Source: Nannocystis bainbridge
Lineage (GTDB): Bacteria > Myxococcota_A > Polyangia > Nannocystales > Nannocystaceae
Assembly (NCBI RefSeq): GCF_028368995.1
Contig: NZ_JAQNDL010000002.1
Coordinates: 64,001-128,000 of the forward strand
Reading direction: 5' to 3'
Length of the DNA: 64,000 bases
Positions 15,009 through 62,431 of this stretch are shown piece after piece (positions within the stretch are counted from its first letter, which is position 1; every line of letters starts with the position of its first letter). The notes under the pieces are model-generated. The model did not search any database. It was given only the letters and a program-made list of their open reading frames with translations, and was not told the origin of the DNA. Position numbers and translations under genes: made by a program.

Positions 15009-16624
15009 GCGTGGACGCGGGGACCGGCGAGACCGAGGCGGAGCGGCGGGGCGACGAGCGGCCGGTGCTGCTGCGCGTCGAGGGGCTGGCGATCGCGCGG
15101 CCCGACGGCTCGCCGCTGGTCGAGGCGCTGACGCTGACGCTGCGCGCCGGCGAGACGGTGGCGGTGTTCGGGGCTAGCGGGGCCGGCAAGTCGACGCTGA
15201 TGGCGGCGCTGCACGACGCCGAGGGGCTGCGGGCGCGCGGCTTCGCGGTCCGTGCGGCCGCGTTCACGACGGCCGGCGCGGTCGGGATCGTGCCGCAGCG
15301 AGGGGCGCTGCTCGACCACCTCAGCGCGGCCGGTAACATCGCCCTGGCGCTGCGCAACGCCGACAAGCCGACGGCGGCCAGCGCGGCGGCGGTCGAGCGC
15401 TGGATCGCCGCGCTCGATCTGCCGCGGCGCTGGAGCGGGGGCGGGCAGGCGGTGGCGCACGTCAGCGGCGGCGAGGCGCAGCGGCTGGCGGTCGCGCGCA
15501 CGCTGGCGGGCGGGCGCCAGATCTTGCTGCTCGACGAGCCGTCGGTCGGGCTCGATCCGCTGCGCGTCGATCGGCTGGCGGCGGCGCTGCGCGGCCAGAT
15601 CGCTGGCCAGGGCGCGGCCGCGCTGGCGATCACCCACGACCTCGAATTCGCGGCGGGCTTCGCCGATCGCTTCCTCTACCTCGACCCGGCCGCGGGCCAG
15701 CTGGTCGAGCTGCCGATCGCCCGCGGCGAGTCGCCGGCGGCGACGGTCGCGGCGCTGGGGGCGGCGCTGCGCGAGCGCATGGCCCGAGAGACAGGTCATG
15801 CGGGCGGGGGCGCGCGCCGGCGCCTGGGGCCGCGGCTGCGAGCTGTCCTTCGGGACATGCTCGCTCCGTTCGCGGTGCTGGCCCGGGCGCTGGTGGCTGC
15901 CCCGGCGGCGCTGGTCCGGCCGCGCGATTTCTTCGAGGTGGCGCGGGTGACGTTCGCCCAGGGCCTGTGGCGGCCGCTCCTGTTCATCGCCGCGGTGTCG
16001 CTGCTGGTCGGGTTCACGCTGCTCTACATCTTCCACCGCGCGTTCTCGGGCGGCGGGGTGCCGGTGCGGCCGGACAAGATCTTCGCGCTGATCGGGTCGA
16101 TGCACGTGCTCGCGCTGGCGCCCCCGCTGTCGGGCATCCTGTTCGCGGCGACCTCGGGCAGCGCGGTCGCGGCCTGGCTCGGCGGGATGTCGCTGACGCG
16201 CCAGACGGCGGCGCTGCGCGGGCTCGGGATCGCCGAGGCGCGCTACCTGTGGCTGCCTGCGGTGCTCGGGCTGGCGCTGGCGTACGTGGTGCTGGCGGCG
16301 GTGTTCACCGGCGGGATGGTGCTCGGCGGGCTGCTCTACTTGAAGGTCCAGGTGCCGGCGCTCGCCGATCCGTGGGCCGTCGTCACCGCGGACTTGCTCG
16401 ATCCCCCGGCCGCGCGGGCGCCGTTCCGCGCGCGCGCGCTCGTGCTGGTCGCGCTGTACGCGGGCGGGATCGCGGCCGACGCGGTGGCGAAGGGGGCCAG
16501 CGACAAGGCCAGCGCAGACGCGGTGACGGCGGCGATGGTCCGCAGCGTGATGGCCTGTACGCTGTGGATCGTGGCGCTCGAGCTGGCGTCGCTGGTGGTG
16601 CTGTATGGCGCTCGCGGTGGATAA
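15005..16624 (+). CDS. ABC ATPase fused to MlaE-like permease
   Basis: GASGAGKS, VSGGEAQR, LLLDEP, THD; C-terminal APPLSGILFAATSGSAVAAWLGGM..TRQ..ALRGLGI (MlaE EAA-like). Confidence 0.82.
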   Translation: MSVDAGTGETEAERRGDERPVLLRVEGLAIARPDGSPLVEALTLTLRAGETVAVFGASGAGKSTLMAALHDAEGLRARGFAVRAAAFTTAGAVGIVPQRGALLDHLSAAGNIALALRNADKPTAASAAAVERWIAALDLPRRWSGGGQAVAHVSGGEAQRLAVARTLAGGRQILLLDEPSVGLDPLRVDRLAAALRGQIAGQGAAALAITHDLEFAAGFADRFLYLDPAAGQLVELPIARGESPAATVAALGAALRERMARETGHAGGGARRRLGPRLRAVLRDMLAPFAVLARALVAAPAALVRPRDFFEVARVTFAQGLWRPLLFIAAVSLLVGFTLLYIFHRAFSGGGVPVRPDKIFALIGSMHVLALAPPLSGILFAATSGSAVAAWLGGMSLTRQTAALRGLGIAEARYLWLPAVLGLALAYVVLAAVFTGGMVLGGLLYLKVQVPALADPWAVVTADLLDPPAARAPFRARALVLVALYAGGIAADAVAKGASDKASADAVTAAMVRSVMACTLWIVALELASLVVLYGARGG

Positions 16625-18326
16625 TTGGCGACTCGCGTCGATGGCCGGTCTGGCCGGGCTGGTGCTGGCGGGCGCGCTGCTGGCCGCCGGGCGCGGGGCG
16701 CTGATCGAGGCGGCGGCGATCGAGCCGTTCCGCGTCGAGGTGGCGTCGGCCCACGCGCCGGCCGCGGACGGGCGCTGGTCGGGGCGGGTGGTGCCGCCCG
16801 AGCTGACGGCGCGGACGGTCGTGCGCGTCGACGGGCAAGTCATCGATGATGCTTCTGGACATGTGCGAGAGGACATGTCCGATGGGACATTATCGGTCGC
16901 GCTGGGTGACGCGCCGGGGCTGCGGCTGATCGAGGTCGAGCTGCCGCGGCAGGGCGGCGCCGAGGTGGCGACCGACGCGGCGCTGATCGGGCCGTTCCGC
17001 GAGCGCTGGGGCGAGGGGCCGGAGTGTGGGGCGGGGGTGCGGGTCGCGGCGGCGGCGATCGATCGTCTGGTGCTGCCGCCGCTGCGGGCGAAGCTGCTGG
17101 CGGCGGCGCCGTCGATCGGGCTGCTCGGGCCGGCGACGACGATCGAGGAGGCGAGCGTGACGCTGCTCGGCGACGCGCTGTTCTTCCGGGTGGCGCTCGC
17201 GGGGGAGCACCGCATCGCGGTGGCAGGCAAGCTCGAGGTGCGGGTGGCCGGGTCGCGTCAGCTCGGCGTGCGGCTGGCTTCGCTCGGGCCGGTCGAGTTC
17301 TCCGGCACGCTGCGCACGCGGGCGACGCTCGGGGCCGCGGCGCTCGGGGCGGCCATCACCGGCCCGCTGGCGCCGCTCGGAGCGCTCGCCGGCTACGCGC
17401 TGGCGGACGGCTACATCGATCGGCGGGCGCGCCAGGAGGTCGAGACGCAGCTGACGGCGGCCCTGGCGGTGGCCAGCGCGATCCCGCTGATCCCGGAGCG
17501 CGCCGAGCTGATCGTCGGCGAGCCGCGCTCACGGGCGACGCTGGCGTTCTGCGCGGTGGCGATCGAGGCGGGCGGGATCGCGGCGCACCTGTCCGTTCGG
17601 CCAGATCGGCCGGAGCCGCGGACCGGCGAGGAGGCGGGCCGGGTGCGCACGCGCCTGGCGGCGATCCCGGGGCCGGCGCGGCACGGGCTGTCGCTGCCGC
17701 CGCTGCGGCCGGTGGCGCCGACGGCCGACGCGGAGGTCGAGCTCAGCCTCGACACGGTCGACGCGCTGCTCGACGCGTGGACGGCCAACGGGCTGCTCGG
17801 CGAATTGATGGGGCGGGCCCAGTGGGTCGAGCGGGTCGACGAGGAGCTGGGCGAGTGGACGACGCTCGGGCTGGAAGGCATCGAGGTGCGGCTGCCGCCG
17901 TCCCTGTCTCCGGGGACAGGTGACGGCTGGGCCCTGACGATCGCGGGGCTGCGGCTCGATCTGACGGGCAGCGAGGGCGACGATCCCGGCGAGGTGCTGG
18001 TGGCAGGGCGCGGGCTGGTGCGCCCGCACTACGACGGCGCGCGCGGGCGCATCGCCCTGGCGGGGACGATCGACCGCCTGCGCCTGTCCTGCGCCCGCGC
18101 GGGGGCGCTGTGGCCGTGCTTCGCGGCGCTGCTCGAGCTGGGCGACGTCGAGGCGAGGCTCGACGCGCTGCTGGCCCCGGGCGCGGCCGGGCTGCCGGGG
18201 ATCGACGTGCGGACGCTGCTGCGCGACGGGACGCAGGCGCTGCGCGAGGGCGGGCTGGAGCTGGCCGACCTGACGATCAGCTACCCGGCGCACGGGGTGC
18301 TGCGGGTGGCCGCCGAGGTGCGCTGA
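16605..18326 (+). CDS. hypothetical membrane-anchored protein, possible BPI/TULIP-like fold
   Basis: Overlaps the upstream gene; N-terminal TM; ELSLDTVDALLDAWTANGLL motif. Confidence 0.65.
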   Translation: MALAVDNWRLASMAGLAGLVLAGALLAAGRGALIEAAAIEPFRVEVASAHAPAADGRWSGRVVPPELTARTVVRVDGQVIDDASGHVREDMSDGTLSVALGDAPGLRLIEVELPRQGGAEVATDAALIGPFRERWGEGPECGAGVRVAAAAIDRLVLPPLRAKLLAAAPSIGLLGPATTIEEASVTLLGDALFFRVALAGEHRIAVAGKLEVRVAGSRQLGVRLASLGPVEFSGTLRTRATLGAAALGAAITGPLAPLGALAGYALADGYIDRRARQEVETQLTAALAVASAIPLIPERAELIVGEPRSRATLAFCAVAIEAGGIAAHLSVRPDRPEPRTGEEAGRVRTRLAAIPGPARHGLSLPPLRPVAPTADAEVELSLDTVDALLDAWTANGLLGELMGRAQWVERVDEELGEWTTLGLEGIEVRLPPSLSPGTGDGWALTIAGLRLDLTGSEGDDPGEVLVAGRGLVRPHYDGARGRIALAGTIDRLRLSCARAGALWPCFAALLELGDVEARLDALLAPGAAGLPGIDVRTLLRDGTQALREGGLELADLTISYPAHGVLRVAAEVR

Positions 18327-18388
18327 TCGGGGCGCCGGGCGGGTGACGAAGCAGGCGAGGCTGGCCGGGCACCCGTGCGGGGCCTGAG

Positions 18389-18923: not shown

Positions 18924-20204
18924 TCAGCGGCGGCGCGGTCGCCTGGCTGCGCGCGCGCCGGGCAGCTCGGCCTCGGCGGCGACGGCCTCGAGGCGGCGGC
19001 CGATGTCCGCGATCGTGGCCGGGGCGACGTCGACCGCGCGGGCTTCACGAGGCCAGCGCGTCAGGGCCGCACGCACCTCGTCGACGATCGCCTGCGCGGC
19101 CTTCTCGTCGATGCCGGCGCGACGGGCGAGGCGCAGCAGGTGCTGCCAGGTCGGGCGGCGGCCCTCGCCGTCGAGCGTCATGGTGTGCTCGCCGCCGGGA
19201 CCGGCGACGAAGTTGAGGTCGTAGGCGGGGGACAGGCGCCAACCACCCTCGCGGTCCATGAGGAAGGAGAAGTTCTTGCCGTGGTCGTCGCGGTTGTGCG
19301 CGAGCACGTTGAACACCATCTGCCGGTAGGCCCGGCGCACGTCCGGCTGGGCGCGCGTGAGGTGCATGGTGACGCGCAGCAGCATGTCGTAGTCGAGGTT
19401 CGGCTCGCGGAAGTCGGCGTCGAGCAGGCCGGCGAGGGTGTGGACGTGGGTGCGCGCGCCGGCCTCGTCGCGGTCGAACCGGCGCACGCCGAAGAAGCGC
19501 TGGCCGCTTTTGGTAGCGAACAGCCGCGTGTCCGGGACCTCGAGCCCGGCGTGGCGCGCCAGGCGGGCGTAGACGTGCTCGATCGCCCCCGCGTCGCGCT
19601 GCTCGTCGCCGGCCCAGAACTTGATCAGCCACGGCTCGTGGTCGGGCGGCGGCACGGCTGTCCCAAAGACCATGCTGTCCCCGCGGACAGCCACGAGGAT
19701 CTTCGGCCGCGCGCCGCCGGGCGAACCACCGGCGTGCTGCAGTACCGGCAAGAGCTCGGACGGGTGGCCCCGGTAGACCTCCTCGGCGGCGGCGGCGAGC
19801 TTGTCGAGGGCGATCGATCGATCGGCGACCGGCTCGGCGTCGGTGCACGGGTGGAAGGTCAAGGCGCCCATGGTGCGGGCGCCGAGGTGGGCCAGGCGAT
19901 CGAGCGGCGACAGCTGCTCGGGGGCGAGGCCGCGCTTGCGAAACAGCCGGTCCATCAGCAACAGGCCCCAGCCGTCGGGCAGGGCGTCGGCGAACACGCC
20001 GTGCAGGCGGGTGGCCGCCGGGGCCTTGAAGATGCCTGGCTGAAGGGCCAGCTTGAGCGGCGAGATCGACGGGCCGCGGGCCAGCCAGGTCGGCTCGTAC
20101 TCGAAGTAGATCGCCCGCTCGTGCAGCAGCAGGTGGCCGACGATCGGCGTGTCCCCGGCGCCGAGCTCGAGCCGGACCTCGATCTTGTGGATCGCCGCGT
20201 TCAC
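18924..20204 (-). CDS. hipA: HipA family toxin kinase
   Basis: FADALPDGWG, SPGGARPK, WLIKF, RRFDR, HNRDDHGKNFS, LSPAYDL. Confidence 0.93.
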   Translation of the reverse strand: MNAAIHKIEVRLELGAGDTPIVGHLLLHERAIYFEYEPTWLARGPSISPLKLALQPGIFKAPAATRLHGVFADALPDGWGLLLMDRLFRKRGLAPEQLSPLDRLAHLGARTMGALTFHPCTDAEPVADRSIALDKLAAAAEEVYRGHPSELLPVLQHAGGSPGGARPKILVAVRGDSMVFGTAVPPPDHEPWLIKFWAGDEQRDAGAIEHVYARLARHAGLEVPDTRLFATKSGQRFFGVRRFDRDEAGARTHVHTLAGLLDADFREPNLDYDMLLRVTMHLTRAQPDVRRAYRQMVFNVLAHNRDDHGKNFSFLMDREGGWRLSPAYDLNFVAGPGGEHTMTLDGEGRRPTWQHLLRLARRAGIDEKAAQAIVDEVRAALTRWPREARAVDVAPATIADIGRRLEAVAAEAELPGARAARRPRRR

Positions 20205-41901: not shown

Positions 41902-42963
41902 GTGAGCCTCAAGCCCGAGCGCATCGCCGCCGCAGCGCGGGCGCGCCAGGTCGCCTTGCTCGGGCTCCTGGCGGCCCGGGCCGACGCGATCGGCGACTCG
42001 CTGGCGCGCACGCACGGGATGGTCGCGTGGGACCGGCACAAGACGATCGGCAAGGTCCAGCGCGGGCTGTGGGGGCTCCGTGAGCAGCGCTTCCACGGGC
42101 TCGGCGGGCCGCCAGCGTGGGTGTGCGAGCGCAAGGACCAGCCGCTCGAGAGCCTGCTGATCGTCAGCTCGCTGCTGCGGCAGGGCCGGCGCGTGCACCT
42201 CGAGGTCGAGGCGGGCGCGAGCGCGGTGGTGCCGGAGCTGCTGACCGAGCTGCGCGACGAGCTGTCGCGCGAGCAGGCCGGCGAGGCGCTGACGATCGGG
42301 GCGGTCGGCGAGGCGAGCCCGGACGAGGTATGCGGGTGGGAGCGCGTCGGGGTGATGCCGGCGCGGCCGCGGGTGGCGGCGGTGCACGCCGACGCCGACC
42401 GCGAGCTGGCCGCGTACGCGCTGGCGCTGTCGGGGCTGCGGCGCGGCGGGGCCGACCCGCGGCGGGTGGTGCAGGCGTTCGTGGCCGGGCCGCTGGAGCG
42501 GCTGGAGCGGCACCTGCACCGGCTGTGGGTCGGGGCGGCGATCGGGCCGCCGGACGATCCGGAGATGTTCGCCGGGCCGGTCGAGCTGGCGCTGGCCGAG
42601 GTGTACCGGGTGGCGCTGGCGGCCTGGTCGGCTGTCCCCGGGGCCAGGGTGCTCTGTCCCGGAGGACAGCTCGAGCGGCCGGGTGACGCTCGCACGTACC
42701 TCGCGCCGGCGCTGCTGCGGGCGCCGCCGATCGAGCCGCCTCCCGCGCACGCGGGGGCGATAGGTCCGCTGGTGGTGCTGCACCCGTGCGAGCCGGCGAC
42801 GCTCGACGCGGCGCTGGCGGCCTGCCGGGCGCGTGGGGACGTGATCCAGCCGATCGGGCCGGAGGCGTGGCGGCAGCAGGTCGGCACGCCGCCGATGGCG
42901 CCGCTGCAGCCGCTGGCGCTGGGCCGCCTGCCGCCCGGGCTGCCCGAGCCGCGACCGACGTGA
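41902..42963 (+). CDS. hypothetical protein with degenerate aldehyde-dehydrogenase-like C-terminal region
   Basis: IGPPDDPEMFAGPV, VLCPGG, YLAPALL, IGPLVVL recall ALDH motifs; no catalytic Cys/Glu motifs. Confidence 0.55.
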   Translation: MSLKPERIAAAARARQVALLGLLAARADAIGDSLARTHGMVAWDRHKTIGKVQRGLWGLREQRFHGLGGPPAWVCERKDQPLESLLIVSSLLRQGRRVHLEVEAGASAVVPELLTELRDELSREQAGEALTIGAVGEASPDEVCGWERVGVMPARPRVAAVHADADRELAAYALALSGLRRGGADPRRVVQAFVAGPLERLERHLHRLWVGAAIGPPDDPEMFAGPVELALAEVYRVALAAWSAVPGARVLCPGGQLERPGDARTYLAPALLRAPPIEPPPAHAGAIGPLVVLHPCEPATLDAALAACRARGDVIQPIGPEAWRQQVGTPPMAPLQPLALGRLPPGLPEPRPT

Positions 42964-43560: not shown

Positions 43561-46494
43561 GTGCGAGCCCTCCTCGACGCCGTGCGCGCCGCGTGCAGCC
43601 CCCGCGATTGGTCGCGCGGGGTCGAGCTCGCGCGGGTCGGGGCGGTCGCGGGGGTCCGGCGCGAGCGCGACGAGGTCGTGCTGCGGGTGGCGATCAAGGG
43701 CGCGGGCAAGAGCCCGACGGTCGCGCTCTACCCGGGTGACGCCGAGTGGAGCTGCGACTGCGACGACGCCGGCGAGTGCTGCTTCCACGTGGCGGCGGCG
43801 GCGATCGCCCTCCAGCGCGCGGTCGAGGCCGGCGAGGCGCTGCCGCGGGGCAGCGAGCGCGCGGGCCGGGTCGGCTACCGCCTGCGCCGGGCCGAGGGCG
43901 CGCTCGAGCTGGTGCGCATGCGGGTGTCCGAAGGGACAGGTCCCGAGAGCAAGGAGACGCCGCTCGGGTACAGCCTGGCGGCGATCACCGGCGGCAAGGT
44001 CGAGGGGCCGGGGATCGTGGCGACGGCGGCCGACTTCGAGGTCGAGAGCGCGCTCGGGATCTACAAGCGCGGGCCGCTGGCGCCGGTGATCACGCGCAAG
44101 CTGATCCCCGCGCTGGCCGGCTGCGAGGATGTCACGCTCGACGGCAAGAAGCTCACCGCGGGCGTCGAGCCGGCCGGCTACCACGGGCGGGTGGCGGCGT
44201 TCGAGGGCGGCAAGGGGTTCCGCCTCTACATCGTCCGCGACCCGACGATCACCGAGGTGTTCCCGGCCAGCGGGGTGGTGCTGTGCGGCGAGGTGCTGCG
44301 CTGCTTCGACAACGGCGGGATCGGGCCGAAGGAGGCGGCGGAGCTGCGCGTGGGGCTGCAGTTCACGCCCGAGCGCGCGGGCGAGCTGGTGGCCGAGGCC
44401 ATCCCGGCCCTGCGCGCGCGGGTCAAGGGCTTCCGCGAGAAGACCGACCGCCTGCCGGTGCTGTCCGACGCGCGGCCGCGGGTGGTGTTCGAGGTCGGGC
44501 GCGCGGGCACGGGCATGTCGGTGCTGCCGGTGCTGGTCTACGGGACGCCCGAGTCGGCGCGCGTCGAGGCCGGGCGGCTGGTGATCCACGGGCGCGAGGT
44601 GCCGCGCCGCGACGCGCTGGCCGAGGCCTCGCTGGTGCGGCGGCTCAGCGATCTGGGGCTGCAGTTCGGGCGCACGTCCAGCGCCGTCGGGCCGATGGCG
44701 GTCGGCATGGCCGAGGCGCTGCGCGGGTTCGAGGGCGGCGAGATCGCCGGCGAGTCGCACCGCGAGTTCGTGCGCAAGGGGCCGCTGCACGCCCGCATGA
44801 TCGACGGCGAAGGTGGCCGATTGGGCATTGCCTTCGAGACAGGTTCTTCGGGACATGTCTCGCAGGCCGACGCCCGCCGGGTGATCGAGGCGTGGCAGGC
44901 GGGCGCGAGCGAGGTGGTGCTCGACGACGGCGGGGTCGCGCCGCTGCCGGTCGACTGGCTGTCGCGGTTCGGCACCGAGGTGGCGCTGCTGCTGGCGGCG
45001 CGCGAGCAGGGCAGCACGCCGGCGGCGTGGGCGGGGCCAGCGCTGGCCGAGCTGTGCCGCGCGCTCAACCACCCGCCGCCGCCGGAGCTGGCCGGGCTGG
45101 CGGCGCTGGTCGAGGGCTTCGAGGCGATCCCCGAGACGCGGCTGCCGGACGACCTGCAGGTCGAGCTGCGCCCGTATCAGCGGCGCGGGGTCGACTGGCT
45201 GGCGTTCCTGCGCGAGGCCGGGCTCGGCGGGCTGCTGGCCGACGACATGGGCCTCGGCAAGACGCTGCAGGCGCTGTGCGCGGTGCGCGGGCGGACGCTG
45301 GTGGTCGCGCCGACCAGCGTGATCCACAACTGGGCGGCCGAGGCAGAGAAGTTCCGACCTGGCCTTCGGGTCAGCGTGTACCACGGGCCGAAGCGACGCC
45401 TCGATCCGCAGGCCGACCTCACGTTGACCAGCTACGCGCTGCTGCGACTCGACGCCGAGGCGCTGGCCGGCGAGCGCTGGGACGCGGTGATCCTCGACGA
45501 GGCGCAGGCGATCAAGAACCCCGAGAGCCAGGTCGCGCGGGCGGCGTTCGGGCTGCAGGCCGACTGGTGCCTGGCGATGACGGGCACGCCGGTGGAGAAC
45601 CGCCTCGACGAGCTGTGGAGCCAGATCCACTTCATCAACCCGGGGCTGCTGGGCGGGCGCGCGGACTTCCAGGAGCGGTTCGGGCGGCCGATCGGCGACG
45701 GCGATCAGGCGGCGGCCCGGGCGCTGCGGCGGCGGATCGCGCCGTTCGTGCTGCGCCGGCGCAAGCAAGAGGTGGCGCGCGAGCTGCCGCCGCGCACCGA
45801 GGTGGTGCTGCGCTGCACGCTCGACGCGCGCGAGCGGGCGGTCTACGACGCGGTGCGGGCGGCCACGCACGAGGAAGTGGTGGCCCAGCTGCAGGCCGGC
45901 GGCGGGGTGCTGGCGGCCCTCGAGGCGCTGCTGCGGCTGCGTCAGGCGGCGTGTCACGCGGCCCTGGTGCCGGGCCAGTCGGCGGCGCGCTCGTCGAAGC
46001 TCGACCTGCTGCTGGAGACGCTGGCCGAGGCGATCGCGGAGGGCCACAAGGCGCTGGTGTTCTCGCAGTGGACCAGCCTGCTCGACCTTTGCGAGCCGGG
46101 GCTGAAGGCCGCGGGCCTGTCGTTCTGCCGCCTCGACGGCTCGACGCGCGACCGCGCGGGGGTGGTGAACCGGTTCCAGGATCCGGACGGGCCGCCGGTG
46201 ATGCTGATCTCGCTCAAGGCCGGCGGCACGGGCCTCAACCTGACGGCCGCCGATCACGTGTTCCTGCTCGACCCGTGGTGGAACCCGGCGGTCGAGGACC
46301 AGGCGGCCGACCGGGCCCACCGGATCGGGCAGGAGCGCCCGGTGATCGTGCACCGCCTGGTCGCAGAGGACACGGTGGAGGAGCGGATCCTGGCCCTGCA
46401 GGGGCGCAAGCGGGCGATCGCCCAGGCGGCGCTCGAGGACGCGGCCGGGGCGGCGGCGATCACCCGCAGCGATCTGCTGGCGCTGCTCGAGTGA
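43561..46494 (+). CDS. SWIM zinc finger-SNF2 family helicase
   Basis: WSCDC...[53 protein letters not shown]. Confidence 0.94.
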
Positions 46495-46508: not shown

Positions 46509-46588
46509 GGACATGTCGCTCGGGGCATGTCCTTGAGGGCATGTCTCTTTGGAAATGTTTTAATGCGCATGTCCTGAAGGACATGCGC
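46509..46588. repeat. 14-bp-period array, 6 units
   Basis: CATG at 46512, 46526, 46540, (AATG 46554), 46568, 46582; between convergent genes. Confidence 0.9.
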
Positions 46589-48057: not shown

Positions 48058-48170
48058 TCGAGCTGTCCCGGAGGACAGATCAAAGGGGCGCTTGGGTCGC
48101 GCTGTCCTTTAGGACAGATCGAAGGGGCGCTTGAATCGAGCTGTCCCTGAGGACAGATCGAAGGGGCGCG
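48058..48170. repeat. 39-bp tandem repeat, three copies, each with CTGTCC-N4-GGACAG
   Basis: Units start at 48058, 48097, 48136. Confidence 0.88.
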
Positions 48171-48201
48171 GAGATCCGAGGTGACCCCGGGGTCAGGTCG
48201 C

Positions 48202-49632
48202 TCAGGAGCGGCACAGGGCGCTGACGCGGGCGGCCAGGGCGGAGCCGGGCCAGCGGGCGACGAAGGCGGCGGCCTCGCGGCGGGCGCGATCAGCCTCGCC
48301 GAGGCGGCAACGCGCCTCGACGGCGGCGGCGGCGGCCTCCTGGACGAAAACACCGGTGGGGAAGCGCTGCTGGTGACGGGCGGCGAGGTCGAGGGCGGCG
48401 CGGTCGTCGGCGGCGAGCAAGGCGGCGCGCAGCGACTCGACGAGGGCGAGCTCGGCGGCCAGCGAGGGACCTTCGGCGGGTGGCGCAGCGGCGATGAGGG
48501 CGTGAGGCTCGGAGGTCGAAGCGGCTCGTGCGGGCACGGCGGCGAGGGAGGGACCGTCGGCGGGCGTAGCGGCGGCGAGGGCGTGAAGGTCGGAGGTCGG
48601 AGCGAGCTTGACGGACGGCGAGGGTTCGTCGGCGGGCGTAGCGGCGGCGAGGGCGTGAGGGGCGGAGGCCGGAGCGAGCTCGGAGGTCGGCGAGGGGTCG
48701 TCGGTTCGTGCCGACGAGGTGGCGGCGAGGAGGGCCTCGAGGGTGGACGGGGTCGGAGCCTTGAGGGCCGGACCGTCGGCTCGCGCGGGGGTTTGCAGCG
48801 ACGCGTGGGCCGAGGTGACGGGCGGCTCGGGTGGGGCGGCGCGGCCGAAGGCGAGCACGGCGGCGAGGCCGACGCCGGCGAGCGAGAGGCCGACGATCGG
48901 GCTGCTGCCGGCGGCGACGACGGGGACGATCGGGCCGCCGCCGGCGAGGGTGGTGGGAGCGGCTACATGGTCGATCGACCATGTCCTTGAGAGCATGTCC
49001 GATACGACATGTCCGTCGCGCGCGGCGGTGAGCTGCCACGGCGGAGCCTCCGGGGGGCCGACGACGACCAGGGCGGCGAGCACCTGGGAGCCGTGCCGCG
49101 GGCGGTGCCGGCGGTCGCGGGCGTCGAGGCGGCGGACCATGCGATCGAGCTCGCGGCGAGCGGCGCGCAGGCGCGAGTAGACGGTGTTGAGGTTGACGCC
49201 GAGCTCGGCGGCGATCTCGGGCGCCTGCCACTGCTCGAGCTCGGTCATGACGAAGACGACGGCCTGGTCGCGGTCGAGGCCGCCCAGGAAGCCCTGGAGG
49301 ATCGCGGCGGCTTCGGCCTGCTCGACCGGGGCCTCGGCGGCCGGGGTGACGCGCTCGGCCTCGTCGAGCGAGCAGCGTCGCGGTTGCTCGCGCGCGGCGC
49401 TGCGGCGGTAGCTGCTGGCGATCCGTCGCGCGATCTCGAACAGCCAGGTGCGCAGGGTGGCCCGGCCGGCGAACTCGGGCAGGCGGCGGTAGACGACCAG
49501 GAAGGCGTCCTGGACGGCGTCGTCGATCCGGGCCGGATCGACGCCCAGGCTCCGGATGGTGCGCCAGACGAAGCCGTGGTGGGCCCGGTAGACGGCGGCG
49601 AAGTCGGGGGGCGCTTCGAGGGAGAGCGGCAC
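48202..49632 (-). CDS. ECF sigma factor fused to a TM segment, repeat linker and TPR-like C-terminal domain
   Basis: DDAVQDAFL, RTWLFEIARR, EIAAELGVNLNTVYSRLRAAR; tail ELALVE...HQQRFPTG...WPGS. Confidence 0.85.
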   Translation of the reverse strand: MPLSLEAPPDFAAVYRAHHGFVWRTIRSLGVDPARIDDAVQDAFLVVYRRLPEFAGRATLRTWLFEIARRIASSYRRSAAREQPRRCSLDEAERVTPAAEAPVEQAEAAAILQGFLGGLDRDQAVVFVMTELEQWQAPEIAAELGVNLNTVYSRLRAARRELDRMVRRLDARDRRHRPRHGSQVLAALVVVGPPEAPPWQLTAARDGHVVSDMLSRTWSIDHVAAPTTLAGGGPIVPVVAAGSSPIVGLSLAGVGLAAVLAFGRAAPPEPPVTSAHASLQTPARADGPALKAPTPSTLEALLAATSSARTDDPSPTSELAPASAPHALAAATPADEPSPSVKLAPTSDLHALAAATPADGPSLAAVPARAASTSEPHALIAAAPPAEGPSLAAELALVESLRAALLAADDRAALDLAARHQQRFPTGVFVQEAAAAAVEARCRLGEADRARREAAAFVARWPGSALAARVSALCRS

Positions 49633-49653
49633 GATCGGGTCTGTCTCCGCGGG

Positions 49654-51015
49654 TCAGCGGTTCCGTGGCCCGAATTGCAGGTCGAGGCCGAAACCGATGC
49701 GCAGTCCCGCACGCCCGCTGCGGTACACCAGCTCGTCGGCGTGCACGGTGAAGCCCGGGCGGTTGACGGCGAGCAGGCCCTCGACGGACAGCCACAGGCC
49801 GACCGGGCCGCTGGCGCGCCAGCGCAGCGCGGGGCCGAGGGAGAAGCCGGCCCACGGGGCCCACCGCGGGTTGGGAGCGCTGACGGCGAGGGCGACGCCG
49901 CGGATCGCCCCGACCTCGGCGCCGGCGCACAGGAGGAAGGCGAGGGCCGGACGCGGGTGCCAGGTCGGACAGACCCGGATGACGGCGCCGAGGCGGTCGA
50001 AGCGGCCGCCGGCGCTGTCGCCCTGGACCGGGAGGATCCGCAGGGGCGTACCGACGATGCCGGCTTCGAGGCGGAGGCGCGGCAGGCTGACGCCGCCGAA
50101 CAGGCCGGCGAAGCCACCGGTGGTCGGGAGGACGCCGGCGTCGAGGCCGCCCTCGAGCCGGAGGTGGCCGAGCACGCGCGGGGTCGCGGCGGGGGCCGGA
50201 GGCCGGCGGGCGGCGGTGATTTCGGCTGTCTCTTCGAACAGGTCGTCGGAGCCGAGCGGGGGCGAGCGCGGGGCGACCGGCGGGCGAGGTGCGAGGAGGG
50301 GCGGGGTGAGCGAGCGAGCGGAGGGATCGGGCGCAGGGATCCCGGGGGACGGGTCGGGCGGCAGGACGGGCGGGGAGGATGTCCCTGGGGACATGTCACT
50401 CGGCGGCGGGGACGGGGAGGTCGAGGATGTCCCCGGGGACATGTCACTCGAGAGCGGTGGGTCGTTCGCGGAGGTCGAGGATGTCCTCGGGGACAGGTCG
50501 TCGGGCAGCGAGGATCGGTCGCCGGGGGAGGTCGAGGATGGCCTCGGGGACAGGTCGGGTGACGCGGCGGCGGATGGCCTCGGGGACAGGTCGGGTGACG
50601 CGGCGGAGGATGTCCTCGGGGACAGGTCGGCGGGCAGGCGGCGGCTGACGGACAGCGGGTCGAGGTGGATGGCGATCAGGAGGGCGGTGGCGCGCGCGAG
50701 GTCCTGGCAGCTCTCGGCGTGGATGGTGCGGCGGTAGTCGGCGCCGCGCCCTTGCCCGCGCGACACGAGTCGCAGCTGCCAGCGGGCGCCCGTGCGGGTG
50801 ACGACGGCGCGGGCGACGGCGCGGGCGGGCACGGCGTCGCCGGTCGGCTGGCGCAACAGCGCGCCGACCATGTCGACGACGGCGACGGCGGGCGGGCACT
50901 CGCGGGGGGCCTGCCAGTCGAGGTCGACCGGCGGCGCGGCGAACGAGAGGCGAGCGAACACCAGCGCGGGGAGGGCGAGCAAGCGAGGTCCTGAGCTCCG
51001 GCATCGTCGCCGCAC
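49654..51015 (-). CDS. exported hypothetical protein with repeat linker and beta-barrel-like C-terminus
   Basis: Signal peptide, W.APRECP...SC domain, DLSPR repeats, amphipathic beta-strands ending GLDLQF; start uncertain. Confidence 0.7.
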   Translation of the reverse strand: MRRRCRSSGPRLLALPALVFARLSFAAPPVDLDWQAPRECPPAVAVVDMVGALLRQPTGDAVPARAVARAVVTRTGARWQLRLVSRGQGRGADYRRTIHAESCQDLARATALLIAIHLDPLSVSRRLPADLSPRTSSAASPDLSPRPSAAASPDLSPRPSSTSPGDRSSLPDDLSPRTSSTSANDPPLSSDMSPGTSSTSPSPPPSDMSPGTSSPPVLPPDPSPGIPAPDPSARSLTPPLLAPRPPVAPRSPPLGSDDLFEETAEITAARRPPAPAATPRVLGHLRLEGGLDAGVLPTTGGFAGLFGGVSLPRLRLEAGIVGTPLRILPVQGDSAGGRFDRLGAVIRVCPTWHPRPALAFLLCAGAEVGAIRGVALAVSAPNPRWAPWAGFSLGPALRWRASGPVGLWLSVEGLLAVNRPGFTVHADELVYRSGRAGLRIGFGLDLQFGPRNR

Positions 51016-51183
51016 GCGGGGAGGGCGTCAACCGCTCCGTCGCAGCTCGACGCTCGCGCGCAGGCGTGCTCCAGAGCGCGGTCACGTGGCCAGGAGCAAG
51101 CCTGTCTCTCGGGACAGGCCATGGTGCCCGTTACGAGCGCGGAGGAGGTTCGGCGCCGCTCTTCGCCGGCGCTGGCGGCCCGC

Positions 51184-57980: not shown

Positions 57981-59606
57981 ATGGTGACGAATCCACCTGA
58001 AGACATCACCGAGACGGTGCTCGAGGGCCGCTACCGGGTGCTGCAGCAGATCGGCCACGGCGGGATGAGCAGCGTGTACGCCGGCGAGGACACGCGGCTG
58101 CGGCGGCGCTGCGCGATCAAGGTGCTGAGCCCGCGGCTGGCGGCGGAGCCGGAGCACGTCGAACGCTTCCTGCGCGAGGCGCAGATGATCGCGTCGCTGC
58201 AGCACCCGAACATCGTCGACATCTATTCGTACGGCGAGGATCCAGCAGGGTGGGTGTATTTCGTGATGGAGCTGCTGACCGGCGAGGACCTCGATTCGCG
58301 GCTGCAGGCGCGCGCGGAGCGGCCGTTCGGGGTGGCGCATTGCTGCCTGTGGGCGCTGCAGGTGGCGGAGGCGGTGGCGGTGGTCCACGAGGCGGGGCTG
58401 GTGCACCGCGACCTCAAGGCCGCGAACGTGTTCCTGGCCCGGCGACGCGACGGGACCGAGGTGTGCAAGCTGCTCGACTTCGGCATCGCGCGGGTGGAGG
58501 ACGGGCCGAAGCTGACGCGCACGGGCGTGACGCTGGGGACGCCGAGCTACATGTCGCCGGAGCAGGTCCGCAACGATCGCCTCGACGGCCGCAGCGATGT
58601 CTATTCGTTCGGGGTGCTGCTGTTCAAGCTGCTGACGGGGCGAGTGCCGTTCGTCGGCGCGCCGATGCAGGTGGCGATGGCGCAGTGCGAGTCGCCGCCG
58701 CCGCGGCCGACGACGCTGGCGAGCGGCATCCCGCCGAACCTCGAGGACATCGTGCTGACGGCCCTGGCCAAGCGGCCCGAGGAGCGGTTCCAGTCGATGC
58801 GCGCGCTGGCGTCGGCGCTGCGCTCGGTGCTGGCCGAGGAGGCGCCCGAGCTGGCAGGGGCCCTGCAATCGGCGGTGAGCGTGACGCTGGCGGGTGAGAG
58901 CGCGCGGGCGGTGCAGGCGGCGACGGCGACGCTGCAGGACGGGCCGACGCCGGGGTCGCCAGCGCGCCAAGGGAGCATGACGGCGGCGATGTCACCGCGC
59001 GGGCGCATGCGGCCCCTGCTGTGGGTGACGGCGAGCGTGGGGGTGGCGACGGTGGCGGTGCTGGTGACGGCGGCGCTGCGCGCTCGAGCGGTGGTGGCGG
59101 AGCCGGGGCCTGCGGAGGCCGGGTCCATCGTCGAGGCGCCGCGGGAGCCGTCAACGGCTGCGAGCGCCGTGCCGGCGATCCACATGCCGCGAGTATCGCC
59201 GACGGATCCGGGCGCCGCGCCGGTGCCGGCCGAGGCGCCGGCTGAGCCGCAGAACTCCGCCACCGCGATCGAGCGCGAAGGGCCGCAGGAGCCACCGCCG
59301 AATTTCGAAGAGGCCTTGCCGCCGCTGTCGCCCGAGCTGCCCGCGTCGCGCGAGGCGACGGGGCAGCCGTCGCGGCCGGCCTCCGATCCGCTGCGGCAGA
59401 TCGAGGTCGCGGCGAAGAAATGTCGCAAGAAGCACAAGGCGGTCGGGGGGCCGAAGATCGAGGTCGACTACGCGGTCGGATCGAGCGGCGAGGTGATTCG
59501 CGCCGTGCCTGCGACCGCCGATCCGCTGGGCCGTTGTCTGGCTGATGCGGTGCGGGCGACCCGGTTCGCCGCCAAGATCGTGCTGGGTCGCAAGGTCTCG
59601 CTGTGA
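57981..59606 (+). CDS. transmembrane Ser/Thr protein kinase
   Basis: GHGGMSSVY, AIK, HRDLKAAN, DFG, GTPSYMSPE; TM; two-Cys C-terminal domain. Confidence 0.93.
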   Translation: MVTNPPEDITETVLEGRYRVLQQIGHGGMSSVYAGEDTRLRRRCAIKVLSPRLAAEPEHVERFLREAQMIASLQHPNIVDIYSYGEDPAGWVYFVMELLTGEDLDSRLQARAERPFGVAHCCLWALQVAEAVAVVHEAGLVHRDLKAANVFLARRRDGTEVCKLLDFGIARVEDGPKLTRTGVTLGTPSYMSPEQVRNDRLDGRSDVYSFGVLLFKLLTGRVPFVGAPMQVAMAQCESPPPRPTTLASGIPPNLEDIVLTALAKRPEERFQSMRALASALRSVLAEEAPELAGALQSAVSVTLAGESARAVQAATATLQDGPTPGSPARQGSMTAAMSPRGRMRPLLWVTASVGVATVAVLVTAALRARAVVAEPGPAEAGSIVEAPREPSTAASAVPAIHMPRVSPTDPGAAPVPAEAPAEPQNSATAIEREGPQEPPPNFEEALPPLSPELPASREATGQPSRPASDPLRQIEVAAKKCRKKHKAVGGPKIEVDYAVGSSGEVIRAVPATADPLGRCLADAVRATRFAAKIVLGRKVSL

Positions 59607-59899
59607 CGCGCGTCGCTGCGGGTCCGCGAGGGTCGACGCGAGCGGAGCGCGGGGTCCTCGCGCGCGCGCGTCGGCGCGAACAGGGCCGGCGTCGCTGTCG
59701 CCGCGAGCGCGGCGATGCGGGCTGCACCGCCACGATCGGCCGCGTCGTGGCAGCACGCAGGGCACGGGCGTGTCCGCGCGATCGGGACGTGGATCGGCGG
59801 TAGCACGATTTTCGCGAGTGGGTCGCGCGGCCCGGCGATCGGCGAGGCCGCGTGTGGGTGGAGAGTGGTGGCTCGGCGGGCCGATGCTACAGACCGGAT

Positions 59900-61516
59900 G
59901 TGACGGACGATGGGGCCGACGATGTCCTCGGATCGCTGCTGGAGGGCCGCTATCGAGTGCTGCGGCGGCTCGGGGGCGCGGGGGTGGGCAGCGTGTTCGT
60001 CGGCGAGGACGAGGTGCTGCGCCGGCGCTGCGCGCTCAAGCTGCTGCACCCGGCGCTGGCCGCCGACGCAGAACGAGCGGCGCGGTTCCTGCGTGAGGCG
60101 CAGACGATCGCGGCGCTCGATCACCCGAACATCGTCGACATCCATTCGTACGGCCAGGACCCGCGCGGCACCGTCTACTTCGTGATGGAGCTGCTCGCGG
60201 GCGAGGACCTCGATGCGCGCCTGCGCGACCGCGCGGCCAGGCCGGTCACGGTGCGCGACGCGTGCCGGTGGGGCCTGCAGATCGCCGCGGCGATGGCGGT
60301 GGTCCACGAGGCCGGGTTCGTGCACCGCGACCTCGAGGCGTCGAACGTGTTCCTGGCCCGCCGCCGCGACGGCAAGCAGGTGTGCAAGCTGCTCGATTTC
60401 GGCATCGCCCGCGCGGTCGAGCGCTCGGAGCTGACGCGCGCGGGGGTGCGGCTGGGGACGCCGGGCTCGATGTCGCCGGAGCAGATCCGCGGCGAGCAGC
60501 TCGACGGTCGCAGCGACGTGTACGCGTTCGGGGTGCTGCTGTTCAAGCTGCTGACCGGGCGGCTGCCGTTCGCCGGGGATGCGCTGGCCGTGGCGCATCA
60601 GCACTGCGAGGCGCCGGCGCCGGCCCCGTCGTCGCTGGCGCCGACGGCGAACATCTCGCCGCGGCTGGACGCGCTGGTCCTCAAGGCCATGGCCAAGCGG
60701 CCGGCCGATCGGTTTGCGACGATGTCGGCGGTGGCGGCGGCGCTGTGCGTCGTGCTGGACGCGCCGGCCCTCGAGTCGACGGTGCGCGGGGTGGTGCCGG
60801 ACGTGATGGCGGAGATGACGCTGCGCGCGGGGGTGCCGGAGCCGGCGGCGCCACGGGAGATCCGTGGGCGCACCGCGGCGACGGCGTCGATGCGCGTGCC
60901 GACGCCGCGCGGGGTGCAAGGGCTCGGGCTGGCGTTCACGGCGCTGCTGGCGGCGACTTCGCTGGCGGTGCTGCGCGCGAGCGGCGGTGCGGGCGTCGGG
61001 GGCGCGGCGCTCGGGCCGGCGCCGGCCGAGGCTGTTCCTCTGGACCTGTCGCATGGGACGACCGCGGCTTGGGGTGATGCTGTCCCGGGGGACAGGTCGC
61101 GCGGGGCGGCGAGGGGTGATGCTGTCCCGGGGGACAGGTCACGCGAGGCGGGGACCGGAGCGTCGCCTGTCCCGGGGCACAGGTCGACGAAGGTGGCGGC
61201 TGCGCCTGTCCCGGCGGACATGCCCGAGCCGGAGGTCGAGCTGCCGCCGCTCGAGGACGAGTTCGCCGGCGCGCGCGCGAGGCAGCGGGCGGACCGGATC
61301 TTGCGCCGGCTGGAGGCCGAGGCGAGGCGTTGCCGGCAGGTCCACGGCGCGGTCGACGGGCCCGAGATCGAGGTCGACTATACGGTCGGTCCGAACGGGG
61401 CGGTGACGGCGGCGACGGCGGCGACGAGGGACGCGCTCGGGGCGTGTCTGGCGGCGGCGGTGCGACGGACCCGGTTCGCGCCGAGGGCCGCGCCCGGGCG
61501 GAAGATCTGGCTGTGA
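59900..61516 (+). CDS. paralogous transmembrane kinase, probable pseudokinase
   Basis: Same architecture as the neighbour but HRDLEASN and GTPGSMSPE. Confidence 0.85.
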   Translation: MTDDGADDVLGSLLEGRYRVLRRLGGAGVGSVFVGEDEVLRRRCALKLLHPALAADAERAARFLREAQTIAALDHPNIVDIHSYGQDPRGTVYFVMELLAGEDLDARLRDRAARPVTVRDACRWGLQIAAAMAVVHEAGFVHRDLEASNVFLARRRDGKQVCKLLDFGIARAVERSELTRAGVRLGTPGSMSPEQIRGEQLDGRSDVYAFGVLLFKLLTGRLPFAGDALAVAHQHCEAPAPAPSSLAPTANISPRLDALVLKAMAKRPADRFATMSAVAAALCVVLDAPALESTVRGVVPDVMAEMTLRAGVPEPAAPREIRGRTAATASMRVPTPRGVQGLGLAFTALLAATSLAVLRASGGAGVGGAALGPAPAEAVPLDLSHGTTAAWGDAVPGDRSRGAARGDAVPGDRSREAGTGASPVPGHRSTKVAAAPVPADMPEPEVELPPLEDEFAGARARQRADRILRRLEAEARRCRQVHGAVDGPEIEVDYTVGPNGAVTAATAATRDALGACLAAAVRRTRFAPRAAPGRKIWL

Positions 61517-61681
61517 GCCCGGGCCGATCGAGCGCGCTGCCGACGAGAGACCGTCTCGGGGATCGGGTCGTGGGTGACCCGCGGGACCGCCTCGGTCCGC
61601 TCGAGCGCCGCACGCTGCTGCGCCTGCAAGCGTCGCAGAACGAGCGCTGCGCCTCCTGAGCCCGCTCGAGCGGCGCGGGCG

Positions 61682-62431
61682 CTAGGCTCGCCGGCTGCGG
61701 GGCTTGCGGGTGCGGGCGGGCTTGGCCGGGAGGGCCGGGGGCGGCTCGGGTTCGGGCGCCGATTCGCCTGTCTCTGCGGGCATGTCCGTGAGGACCTGTG
61801 CTTCGGGACCGGTCGCTTCGGACATGCCCTCGGCGTCACCCGGGTCGAGGCCGCCGCTGCGGAGGGTGCGGGGCGGCAGCAGCTCGGGCTCGCTGACGAC
61901 CTTCTTGGCCAGGAAGATGGCGGCGTCGATCTGGGAGAAGCTGCGGGCGCGGTAGAACTGGAGCGCGCGCCGGTTGTTGGCGGCGACCTCGAGCACGAGG
62001 TGGGTGCAGCCGCGGACGCGGGCGAGGTGCTCTAACTGCTCGATGACGAAGCTGCCGATCCCGCGGCCCTGGAAGTCGGGGTGGATGGCGATCTCCTCGA
62101 CGAACAGCGGGCGCATGTCGCGGCTCTCGAAGTAGCGCTCGTTGATCCAATTGTCGGAGCCGATGACCTCGTAGGCGCACTCGGCGTAGCCGACGATCAC
62201 AGGGGCTTCGCCCTCGTGGATCTCGAACAGCAGCTGCTCGATGCCCTCCTCCTCGTAGATCTCGAGGAAGCGGGTCTTGGTGCGGGGGCGCTGGTATTCG
62301 ACGGTCTCGCGGTTGACCGAGCGGAACACGCGCTTGAGGAACTCCCACACCTTGTTGAGGTCGCGGCGGTGGATCCGGCGGACACGGATGGTCGGCTCCG
62401 TGACGGCGAGCGCGGGCTTGCGAGAGGCCAC
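61682..62431 (-). CDS. GNAT acetyltransferase
   Basis: IAIHPDFQGRGIG, LEV...NRRALQFY; TAGACT 6 bp before the GTG. Confidence 0.88.
   Translation of the reverse strand: MASRKPALAVTEPTIRVRRIHRRDLNKVWEFLKRVFRSVNRETVEYQRPRTKTRFLEIYEEEGIEQLLFEIHEGEAPVIVGYAECAYEVIGSDNWINERYFESRDMRPLFVEEIAIHPDFQGRGIGSFVIEQLEHLARVRGCTHLVLEVAANNRRALQFYRARSFSQIDAAIFLAKKVVSEPELLPPRTLRSGGLDPGDAEGMSEATGPEAQVLTDMPAETGESAPEPEPPPALPAKPARTRKPRSRRA

Follow-up and report, generated by a model that had tools for sequence, protein, structure and literature searches.

Several kinds of short, repeated DNA known from other bacteria bear comparison with the element described here: the uptake sequences of Pasteurellaceae and Neisseriaceae (uptake signal sequences, USS, and DNA uptake sequences, DUS), HIP1 of cyanobacteria, the repetitive extragenic palindromes and bacterial interspersed mosaic elements (REP/BIME, including REPIN-RAYT), the Rickettsia palindromic elements (RPEs), and the GGGNATC arrays of Xanthomonas and Nostoc. 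The present element, TGTCC-N4-GGACA, recurs in a 64,000-nucleotide stretch of Nannocystis bainbridge DNA (contig NZ_JAQNDL010000002.1, positions 64,001 to 128,000), which we call the window, and it corresponds to the “14-bp motif” of a first-pass annotation of that stretch. It is the joint of two units of a lattice in which each unit comprises a 10-bp palindrome, GGACATGTCC, and four free bases. In this report, we found that the lattice is hugely over-represented in one bacterial genus, that its main habitat is the DNA just past stop codons, and that within genes it overrides codon preference.

In uptake sequences, the intergenic copies are often inverted pairs at gene ends. Within open reading frames (ORFs), uptake sequences approximately double the peptides that they encode and prefer poorly conserved positions, according to the accessible part of Findlay and Redfield 2009 (PMC2817400). 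As described in the accessible portions of that literature, USS and DUS resemble the Nannocystis motif in being short, lineage-specific words present in hundreds to thousands of copies, one-third to two-thirds of them in ORFs, with a use of frames set by codon cost. The genome-wide excess, the many copies in ORFs and the raised counts of encoded peptides all have counterparts here. Unlike USS and DUS, the Nannocystis word is palindromic, its units recur in strict tandem register at 14 bp in arrays that reach 8 units, and rare codons are used rather than avoided.

HIP1 (GCGATCGC) is a palindrome that is 15- to 300-fold over-represented and conserved both within and between ORFs; the accessible part of the report describes no peptide or RNA role for it and a suspected chromosome-level function (Xu, Lawrence and Durand 2018, PMC5861425). 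The accessible part of another paper ties HIP1 to two methyltransferases (PMC13756078). Like HIP1, the lattice unit is a short, hyper-abundant palindrome that is conserved in genes and in gaps. However, HIP1 is a single 8-mer with neither spacer nor tandem lattice, and the accessible sections of PMC5861425 contain no gene-end niche. The two also differ in sequence and lineage, and we therefore consider the lattice an analogue of HIP1, not a member of its family.

REP elements are marked by a conserved palindrome of 20-40 nt, which in many families carries a GTAG-like head. The accessible parts of the REPIN-RAYT literature describe imperfect palindromes that are short and number in the hundreds (Bertels and Rainey 2011, PMC3116915; PMC3337134), and, to the same extent, REP/BIME resemble the lattice in their position after genes and between convergent genes, their very stable hairpins, and their vertical inheritance within a lineage. 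In contrast to REP and REPIN, no RAYT gene was found in any of the 11 genomes of the genus (64-91% complete), there is no conserved head or loop and no relationship by descent among copies beyond 10 bases, and more than one-third of the copies are in genes. In place of a conserved palindrome of 20-40 nt there are only 10 fixed bases; the extragenic niche at gene ends is present, yet 755 of the 1,987 exact sites in the genome are in called genes.

RPEs are conserved elements of ~100-150 bp that are inserted as units. The first-pass annotation had likened the motif to them, and it does share with them the character of a nucleic-acid-level repeat that is found in frame within genes and adds residues at tolerant surface positions. 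The likeness does not extend further: only ~10 bases recur here, with unrelated spacers and flanks, sites also arise by substitution, and no Y1 transposase was found in any of the 11 genomes of the genus.

Finally, GGGNATC heptamers form genome-wide tandem arrays that prefer positions within 50 bp of a stop codon, are scarce between divergent ORFs, and favor four units, according to the accessible part of Rehm et al. 2015 (PMC4692102). The Nannocystis units differ in being palindromic, in their 14-bp period, and in being common in coding regions. No other system in this comparison unites a palindromic unit with a fixed 14-bp lattice, presence in half of all convergent gaps, and heavy use within genes.

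The element is a short DNA word that overrides codon preference in an organism of 71.5% G+C, outside the Pasteurellaceae, Neisseriaceae and cyanobacteria, and that writes residues into hundreds of proteins. It should be easier to dissect than HIP1, given its clear habitat (half of the convergent gaps are occupied, with an onset no more than ~20 bases past the stop), its strict lattice, and its sharp taxonomic boundary.

The lattice, its lineage and its habitat

The window holds 18 exact copies, whereas 100 dinucleotide-preserving shuffles average 0.04 copies and never exceed 1, and GGACATGTCC with at most one mismatch occurs in it 23 times, against 1.98 expected. In the genome (G000; 11.05 Mb, 71.5% G+C, five contigs), the motif is in ~200-fold excess: there are 1,987 exact copies, versus 0-16 for each arrangement of the same half-sites with spacers of 0-3 or 5-12 bases. 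The opposite junction, GGACA abutting TGTCC, is present 956 times genome-wide (4-19 for other spacers), and CATG-N10-CATG 3,736 times (~70-400 at other spacings). The autocorrelation of GGACA with itself peaks at 14, 28, 42, 56 and 70 bp, with 639, 322, 288, 146 and 73 pairs, respectively, over a background of ~5-30 pairs. Units are found singly, paired, or in arrays of up to 8. When units matching GGACATGTCC in at least 8 of 10 positions were chained, 2,011 arrays of 2-8 units were found at a period of 14, versus 8-10 chains at a period of 13 or 15.

A logo of the 1,987 sites contains only the 10 fixed bases and half-conserved neighbouring half-sites, with no GTAG head. The 4-base spacer and the wider flanks differ from copy to copy; the bias of the spacer is a symmetric YYRR, and its bases are not complementary. 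At gathering scores, no Rfam family accounts for the lattice, the only match being a tRNA at 30671-30742, and a literature search that had most subscription journals outside its reach returned no description of such an element. A resemblance of GGACATGTCC to p53 sites was rejected as coincidence. Biased very-short-patch-type repair is also an improbable source, since the half-site by itself shows no excess: GGACA occurs 11,418 times, in the middle rank of 5-mers of the same composition.

Protein similarities put the window among the Myxococcota, the relatives, of ~50% identity, bearing the names Byssovorax, Sorangium, Labilithrix and Enhygromyxa. Each of the ten other genomes of the genus that were searched carries 114-2,090 exact copies, with the lower counts coming from smaller, less complete assemblies. 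Two sister genera of the family have 87 (G011) and 161 (G013) copies, six further genera of the family have 3-5, and 12 genomes of other families have 0-7; a control pattern gives 0-10. With copies across the genus and background levels in most of the rest of the family, the motif is therefore a lineage trait and not an artefact of assembly. The low counts in G011 and G013 may represent an early stage of its expansion. Two-unit forms with at most three mismatches number 11 in G011 and 17 in G013 (none for the control), and the 16 loci inspected in these two genomes have sites both within and between ORFs; at their 60% G+C, a coding filter based on third-position G+C (GC3) is unusable.

The gene caller was home-made and based on codon usage; its calls take in 82-85% of the genome, and it cuts starts short where rare codons abound. 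The exact sites fall into these approximate classes:

Intergenic: 905 exact sites, 7.6 per 10 kb
Inside called genes: 755 exact sites, 0.82 per 10 kb
In possible N-terminal extensions: 291 exact sites, 4.4 per 10 kb
Across a gene boundary: 36 exact sites

Depending on the treatment of the possible N-terminal extensions, ~38-53% of copies are in ORFs. Among gaps, the density of exact sites per 10 kb is 15.4 when the flanking genes are convergent, 6.3 when they are in tandem, and 2.3 when they are divergent, and gaps that contain a site or array number 716 of 1,429 (convergent), 828 of 4,404 (tandem) and 154 of 1,455 (divergent). Among convergent gaps with a length of 50-400 bp, 59-65% contain one. 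Normalised for the available sequence, the density is highest at 0-20 nt past the stop (3.4-4.8 per kb between convergent genes, 1.8-1.9 per kb between tandem ones) and declines to 0.3-0.7 per kb by 300-400 nt; within 50 nt of the starts in divergent gaps, it is at most 0.11 per kb. The main habitat of the motif is therefore the DNA just past stop codons, a point that the first-pass annotation had overlooked. The niche is not shared by tRNA genes, of which just 6 of 102 are followed by a site or array in the next 120 nt. Several tRNA genes have ordinary terminators with a GC hairpin and a T-run (C1 ~21050, C2 ~628298 and C2 ~1491107); canonical terminators are therefore in use at these genes, and the lattice at other places. 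Site density also climbs with local G+C (rho = 0.475 in 50-kb bins), and bins below 70% G+C, which are probably foreign, have 2.7-4 sites per 50 kb, compared with 9.8-14 elsewhere.

Copies within genes

The 755 exact sites in called genes are distributed among 579 genes. Only ~11.4 would be expected from codon usage given the peptides present, which excludes a chance frequency of sites in genes. They occur in all three phases and on both strands, and they are spread evenly along gene length; for 550 of the 755, the in-frame GC3 exceeds 0.85 on both flanks. The first base of the motif is at codon position 3 in 428 sites, position 2 in 263, and position 1 in 64, which is the order expected from the cost of the codons needed. 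Among the rare codons of the motif, ACA accounts for 1.9% of Thr, GGA for 2.2% of Gly, TGT for 9% of Cys, and CAT for 8.5% of His. The peptides that correspond to the three phases compare with codon usage as follows:

Codon phase 1, CPxG[QH]: 64 of 148 encoded by the exact motif, 0.38 expected from codon usage
Codon phase 2, [LMV]Sx[GRW]T: 263 of 593 encoded by the exact motif, 0.31 expected from codon usage
Codon phase 3, xV[PLQHR]xD[IMTNKSR]: 428 of 1,556 encoded by the exact motif, 10.7 expected from codon usage

Given the peptides, the excess over the codon-usage expectation is 40- to 840-fold. The peptides themselves are also too frequent when compared with controls of reversed order: 593 versus 314 for [LMV]Sx[GRW]T, 148 versus 10 for CPxG[QH], and 1,571 versus 1,268 for xV[PLQHR]xD[IMTNKSR]. 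Taken together, the two excesses show that the signal is not at the level of the peptide, and that the proteome has been changed by it.

The flanks of 600 of the 755 genic sites are unrelated to those of any other site. Two clusters were found among the flanks, one of 63 sites in P/A/E-rich linkers and one of 22 sites in Cys-rich CPxGQ repeats. The proteins with the latter repeats (e.g., C1 2015393 and C1 3163508) look secreted, and TGT and GGA codons complete the motif in them. Ninety-four arrays of at least three units on the 14-nt lattice lie wholly within genes; of 71 close pairs of genic sites, 60 are separated by multiples of 3 and 13 by multiples of 14.

Twelve of the 18 exact sites in the window are in ORFs, and six are intergenic; the gene caller missed 4 of the 12 (50380-50611). 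The window's sites and patches are the following:

5879..5944, intergenic array of two 24-nt two-unit palindromes, 42 bp apart in register, with exact sites at 5884 and 5926
15844..15857, + strand, exact site read VLRD in the linker (~residue 280) of a fused ABC ATPase-MlaE permease
16857..16889, + strand, two to three units of the lattice, translated as GHVREDMSDGT, in a BPI-like protein of the TULIP fold
19676..19689, − strand, exact site in HipA, ~residues 172-176, within the HipA_C envelope
42655..42668, + strand, exact site in a protein without a Pfam match (41902-42963), identical in all five congeners
43925..43943, + strand, exact site and a 9/10 unit in the SNF2 gene, read VSEGTGPE in a beta-hairpin loop
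44851..44860, + strand, single 9/10 unit GGACATGTCT in the SNF2 gene, read GHV, the weakest of the cited cases
46509..46588, six-unit 14-bp array filling the convergent gap between the SNF2 and FG-GAP genes
48060..48175, three 39-bp tandem repeats with one exact site each
48964..49014, − strand, C-terminal extension of an ECF sigma factor (patch GHVVSDMLSRTWSIDHV), where three units follow one another at 14 nt
50380..50628, − strand, four exact and two near sites read DLSPRT/DMSPGT in the P/S/T-rich linker of ORF 49654-51015
61079..61222, + strand, three exact sites and one near site read AVPGDRS (twice), PVPGHRS and PVPADM, past the kinase domain of the second of two kinases (kinase 2)
61766..61828, − strand, C-terminal tail of a GNAT acetyltransferase (patch GMSEATGPEAQVLTDMPAETG), with a degenerate array in 14-nt lattice register

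The first-pass annotation had reported the motif in coding sequence in varied frames and on both strands, and its six cited peptides are all present as it described them, save that the SNF2 peptide, for which a start at 44826 had been given, is located at 44833-44862 (+). It had also noted an abundance of rare A/T-ending codons in these patches, and this is borne out. Such codons make up 5 of 11 in the GHVREDMSDGT patch, 5 of 10 in the SNF2 peptide (44833-44862), 7 of 17 in the ECF sigma patch, 13 of 83 in ORF 49654, 16 of 65 in kinase 2, and 6 of 21 in the GNAT patch. The resulting range of 16-50% compares with 3-8% elsewhere in the same genes and with 5% genome-wide. Its statement that the DNA phasing is the same throughout applies to the ECF sigma factor, the BPI-like protein at 16605-18326 (the 16605 protein) and the GNAT tail, which keep to the strict 14-nt lattice; the copies of ORF 49654 and kinase 2 are spaced at 36-54 nt and constitute in-frame peptide repeats.

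Conservation was assessed with the syntenic 64 kb from five congeners (~90% DNA identity). Identities at codon positions 1, 2 and 3 are:

Arms of genic sites: 93.8%, 92.4% and 92.2%
Spacer of genic sites: 61%, 92% and 63%
10-nt flanks of genic sites: 75%, 85% and 73%
Background, all genes: 92.9%, 94.9% and 85.6%

The sites in gaps have arms that are 96% identical, a spacer that is 32% identical, and flanks that are 68% identical. A comparison with G007 alone, which spans 137 kb including the window (synteny breaks near position 165,000 of G000 contig C3), gives arms that match at 116 of 120 positions for 12 genic sites, with third positions 95.7% identical against a background of 84.8% and spacer third positions at 61.5%. 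It follows that the sites occupy fast-evolving segments of their proteins, with the arms held. Sites do turn over between distant congeners. These results, together with the excess of motif-encoded peptides over the codon-usage expectation, bear out the earlier proposal that the signal resides in the nucleic acid: the arms are held and the spacer drifts.

Three routes bring copies into genes, the last of them apparently. The first is substitution in tolerant segments. At site 15844, G002 has a motif-free stretch of identical length, and the site therefore arose by substitution, in a linker whose length varies across the family; a second site in this linker (LSRET) is kept in G002, G008 and G048 and has decayed in G000. 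The second acts in loops and linkers, where segments that bear the motif are inserted or duplicated in frame. The patch of the 16605 protein is an insertion of 8-11 residues in a variable loop relative to 11 orthologues, including that of G018, where the motif is at background level. Congeners have further in-frame units, of +123 nt in G005 and G007 (+41 residues) and +57 nt in G010 (+19 residues). In an AlphaFold model of the protein (mean confidence score, pLDDT, 77.0), residues 81-90 average 56, between blocks of 90 and 82. Similarly, the SNF2 site at 43925 includes a 4-residue insertion relative to G006, G008 and G009, and the motif-poor genomes G021 and G024 have other residues there. In the SNF2 model (mean pLDDT 83.3), both patches are beta-hairpin loops; strands 114-123 and 131-134 flank site 43925, and residues 126-129 have a pLDDT below 50. 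The linker of ORF 49654 varies in length and repeat number among the five congeners.

The third route appears to be the capture of a post-stop array upon the extension of an ORF or the fusion of two ORFs. The GNAT tail is present in all five congeners, and orthologues in a different genus (G031 and G043) end at ~residue 185-193; in the genus, the ORF extends for 55-70 residues through the degenerate array, of which three units match in at least 8 of 10 positions in G000 and five positions are in register in G005. From the alignment, this tail looks like a post-stop array captured via loss of a stop codon.

The orthologues thus argue for both insertion (16605 protein, SNF2) and substitution (15844), and for neither alone; the suggestion that the patches had been inserted as elements fails as a sole route, given that site 15844 arose without a change of length. 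The related claim that the motif generates new protein sequence is supported by the loop insertions of the 16605 and SNF2 proteins, the linker of ORF 49654, the genus-specific GNAT tail, and the near doubling of a pentapeptide class. Protein novelty, in the form of loop insertions, variable linkers and new C-terminal tails, can come from a signal that is not itself about protein.

Proposed recognition as duplex DNA and the alternatives to it

We propose that this genus-specific lattice is read as symmetric double-stranded DNA, most likely by a putative dimeric protein that would sit side by side along the arrays. Its working place would be the first 20-100 bases past stop codons and the convergent gaps. 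Enterobacterial REP/BIME occupy this niche as well, which points to a function in delimiting transcription units or in local DNA topology. Pressure of the same kind would also act in genes where the protein tolerates the word, either through selection for sites or through a sequence-biased drive, and there the word overrides codon preference and fixes the encoded residues. As a whole, this explanation could about equally well prove right or wrong. Recognition of the duplex by a symmetric factor, as judged from the sequences, is close to an even question that may lean slightly towards the negative.

The variation of the motif is consistent with such recognition. The arms vary independently, with G2/C13 almost invariant and T3/A12 loose. 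At pair 5/10, the double variant TA numbers 127, compared with ~101 if the arms were independent, and double variants that keep pairing barely exceed expectation. There is no excess of G.U-compatible variants on the sense strand (222 versus 192), nor is there a sense-strand preference for stable tetraloops (UUCG 23 versus CGAA 22; GNRA 24 versus 16).

Several points count against this proposal. Arrays in gaps fold far better than their shuffles (z = -5.4 to -7.5; genic patches, -1.8 to -4.3). Arrays of four units are in excess in gaps, where 2, 3, 4 and 5 units are found in 619, 200, 167 and 49 arrays. There is a small excess of Watson-Crick pairs in the flanks, outside genes only (530 versus 445 expected). 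A protein roadblock within ~750 genes would seem costly, and the reader protein stays putative. The conservation test comprises 10 genic sites of the window and 12 in the G007 map, two sets that overlap, and the class counts are approximate, since the gene calls are crude. Lastly, the composition of genic flanks barely differs from that of random places in the same proteins (0.626 versus 0.613), which lends little weight to “permissive” as a description of them. The first-pass annotation had held that the motif colonises permissive loops and linkers; this is apt for the window, where the patches are in beta-hairpin or low-confidence loops of the two AlphaFold models and their flanks diverge faster than the gene average, but it is not a genome-wide rule.

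The folding data are better accommodated if the lattice acts as RNA. Pairs of units would then be hairpins of the 3′ untranslated region, with a 10-bp stem and a 4-nt loop, that end transcription or protect the 3′ ends of mRNA; the copies in genes would be harmless, being melted by translating ribosomes, and would be kept through the same RNA-binding or RNA-processing factor. Consonant with this idea are the very stable folds, the four-unit and Watson-Crick excesses outside genes, and the peaks of density at 0-20 nt past stops and in convergent gaps, as well as the fact that hairpin-plus-T-run terminators in 41000-52000 are no more frequent than in shuffles (1 versus 1.2). Yet the independent variation of the arms, with few compensatory changes, and the lack of both G.U strand asymmetry and sense-strand bias of UUCG/GNRA loops are not what a folded RNA would lead one to expect. 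Nor are the near-absence of the lattice downstream of tRNA genes, several of which have ordinary terminators, the lack of a T-run after the motif, and the conservation of arms within genes, where a hairpin has no obvious use. We consider a role as RNA unlikely, though it deserves serious attention. Its simplest version, an intrinsic terminator, was rejected: there is no T enrichment past the motif, and the sole match in 41000-52000 is not at an array.

Another possibility is that the lattice is a docking array of a putative genus-specific DNA-binding protein, which would serve as a transcription roadblock or as a supercoil insulator for convergent genes, and that the copies in genes are themselves selected. 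We view this possibility as tentative and rather improbable. Were it true, a chromosome-level code would co-evolve with the sequences of protein loops and linkers.

A molecular drive that confers no function on individual sites is a doubtful alternative to recognition as duplex DNA. Here, biased uptake, repair or gene conversion would add the word, which would accumulate wherever it is tolerated: chiefly past stop codons, also in the tolerant parts of genes, and least of all in promoters. Such a process would account for the large share of copies in ORFs (~38-53%), for a phase use that tracks codon cost, for the near doubling of the pentapeptide class (an effect that uptake sequences also have in the accessible part of PMC2817400), for the turnover of sites between distant congeners, and for the paucity of sites in low-G+C, probably foreign stretches. 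However, no palindrome repeated at a fixed 14-bp tandem spacing is known among uptake sequences, and the sharp post-stop peak and the 7-fold excess of convergent over divergent gaps exceed what relaxed constraint alone would produce. Further, competence and uptake specificity in the genus carry no established link to the motif.

It is very improbable that the motif is a miniature mobile element, be it a REP/REPIN moved by a RAYT or an in-frame insertion resembling an RPE or a miniature inverted-repeat transposable element (MITE). The in-frame insertions, the differences in copy number among congeners and the REP-like niche at gene ends are compatible with mobility, but copies share only ~10 fixed bases, with unrelated spacers and flanks (the latter at 600 of 755 genic sites), and at least one site, 15844, arose without a change of length relative to a relative. 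Moreover, a search for the Y1 transposase (PF01797) found it in 0 of the 11 genomes of the genus, which are 64-91% complete, whereas 6 of 14 control genomes are positive.

We give virtually no credence to a by-product of protein repeats or of composition, a reading that could draw on genuine peptide repeats at two clusters of sites (P/A/E-rich linkers with 63, CPxGQ repeats with 22) and on the 60 of 71 close pairs that are in frame, but that is refuted by the reading of the same DNA in three phases and on both strands, the 40- to 840-fold excess over codon usage, the 905 copies outside any ORF, and the 0.04 copies per window in shuffles.

Individual sites and their neighbours

The intergenic arrays of the window exemplify the gene-end habitat. 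The array at 5879..5944 stops a few bases short of the stop codon of the minus-strand gene at 5951-6772, and its RNA fold has a z of -7.5 on either strand; at site 5926, the arms are retained and the spacer has changed in four congeners. For the array at 46509..46588 (fold z = -6.0 and -5.4), four congeners have arrays in register after the SNF2 stop, with unrelated spacers. The repeats at 48060..48175 are located after the stop of the minus-strand ECF sigma gene and upstream of a divergent FG-GAP start (fold z = -5.4). In each of these 39-bp repeats the exact site is followed by GATCGAAGGGGCGC, a longer unit than elsewhere, and none of the five congeners aligns.

Among the genic sites, 15844 retains its arms in four of five congeners (G010 has one mismatch), and its spacer differs in all five. 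The Pfam domains of the ABC-MlaE fusion are at residues 40-214 and 323-528, on either side of this site. Site 19676 in HipA, the sole window site within a Pfam domain, has exact arms in four of five congeners, with one arm mismatch in G005. The GHV unit at 44851 falls in SNF2 loop 428-433, between strands 421-427 and 434-436 of the AlphaFold model, in an indel-prone region of the alignment.

Sigma region 4 of the ECF sigma factor extends to residue 162, and the patch comprises residues 207-223; its three units are read in codon phases 1, 3 and 2 as GHV, DML and RTW. The C-terminal half of this ORF (48202-48800, ~residues 277-476) has no DNA alignment in the five congeners, and the sigma domains align.

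The patch of ORF 49654-51015 contains DLSPRT twice and DMSPGT twice as exact matches, with two further DLSP units. Third-position G+C is the highest (0.80-1.0) throughout the patch, the sequence is strongly coding on both sides, and the N- and C-terminal domains are conserved in congeners; the stretch at 50380-50611 is therefore coding. Gene finders that rely on codon bias will cut genes at such patches, as happened here at 50176-51015. The gain or loss of a single 14-nt unit would shift the reading frame. In G007 and G010, the N-terminal part of the ORF no longer aligns in the frame of the C-terminal domain, which reflects either frameshifts within the repeat linker or assembly errors.

In kinase 2, the Pkinase domain spans residues 34-294, and the patch, at residues 410-457, has no aligned counterpart in congeners. 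Two Ser/Thr kinase genes are adjacent at 57981-61516; G001 and G003 have a single gene that is matched by the N-terminal halves of both, and G005, G007 and G010 lack the whole stretch. On these alignments, the two kinases look like a recent tandem duplication that already bore motif patches.

The genes around site 15844 merit a final comment. The ABC ATPase and MlaE permease (15005-16624) constitute one ORF here and in seven relatives, with the motif at the junction; in five other genomes of the family, the halves are split by a stop codon or appear as two hits. The adjacent 16605-18326 protein has no Pfam match and occurs in the same 14 of 31 family genomes as the ABC-MlaE gene. Foldseek searches with its AlphaFold model (pTM 0.76) match BPI, LBP and CETP, of the TULIP lipid-transfer fold, with E = 5e-14. 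An MlaD (MCE) partner is expected beside an Mla transporter. The modelled fold raises the possibility that this Mla-like transporter may be paired with a BPI-like lipid carrier in the MlaD partner's place.

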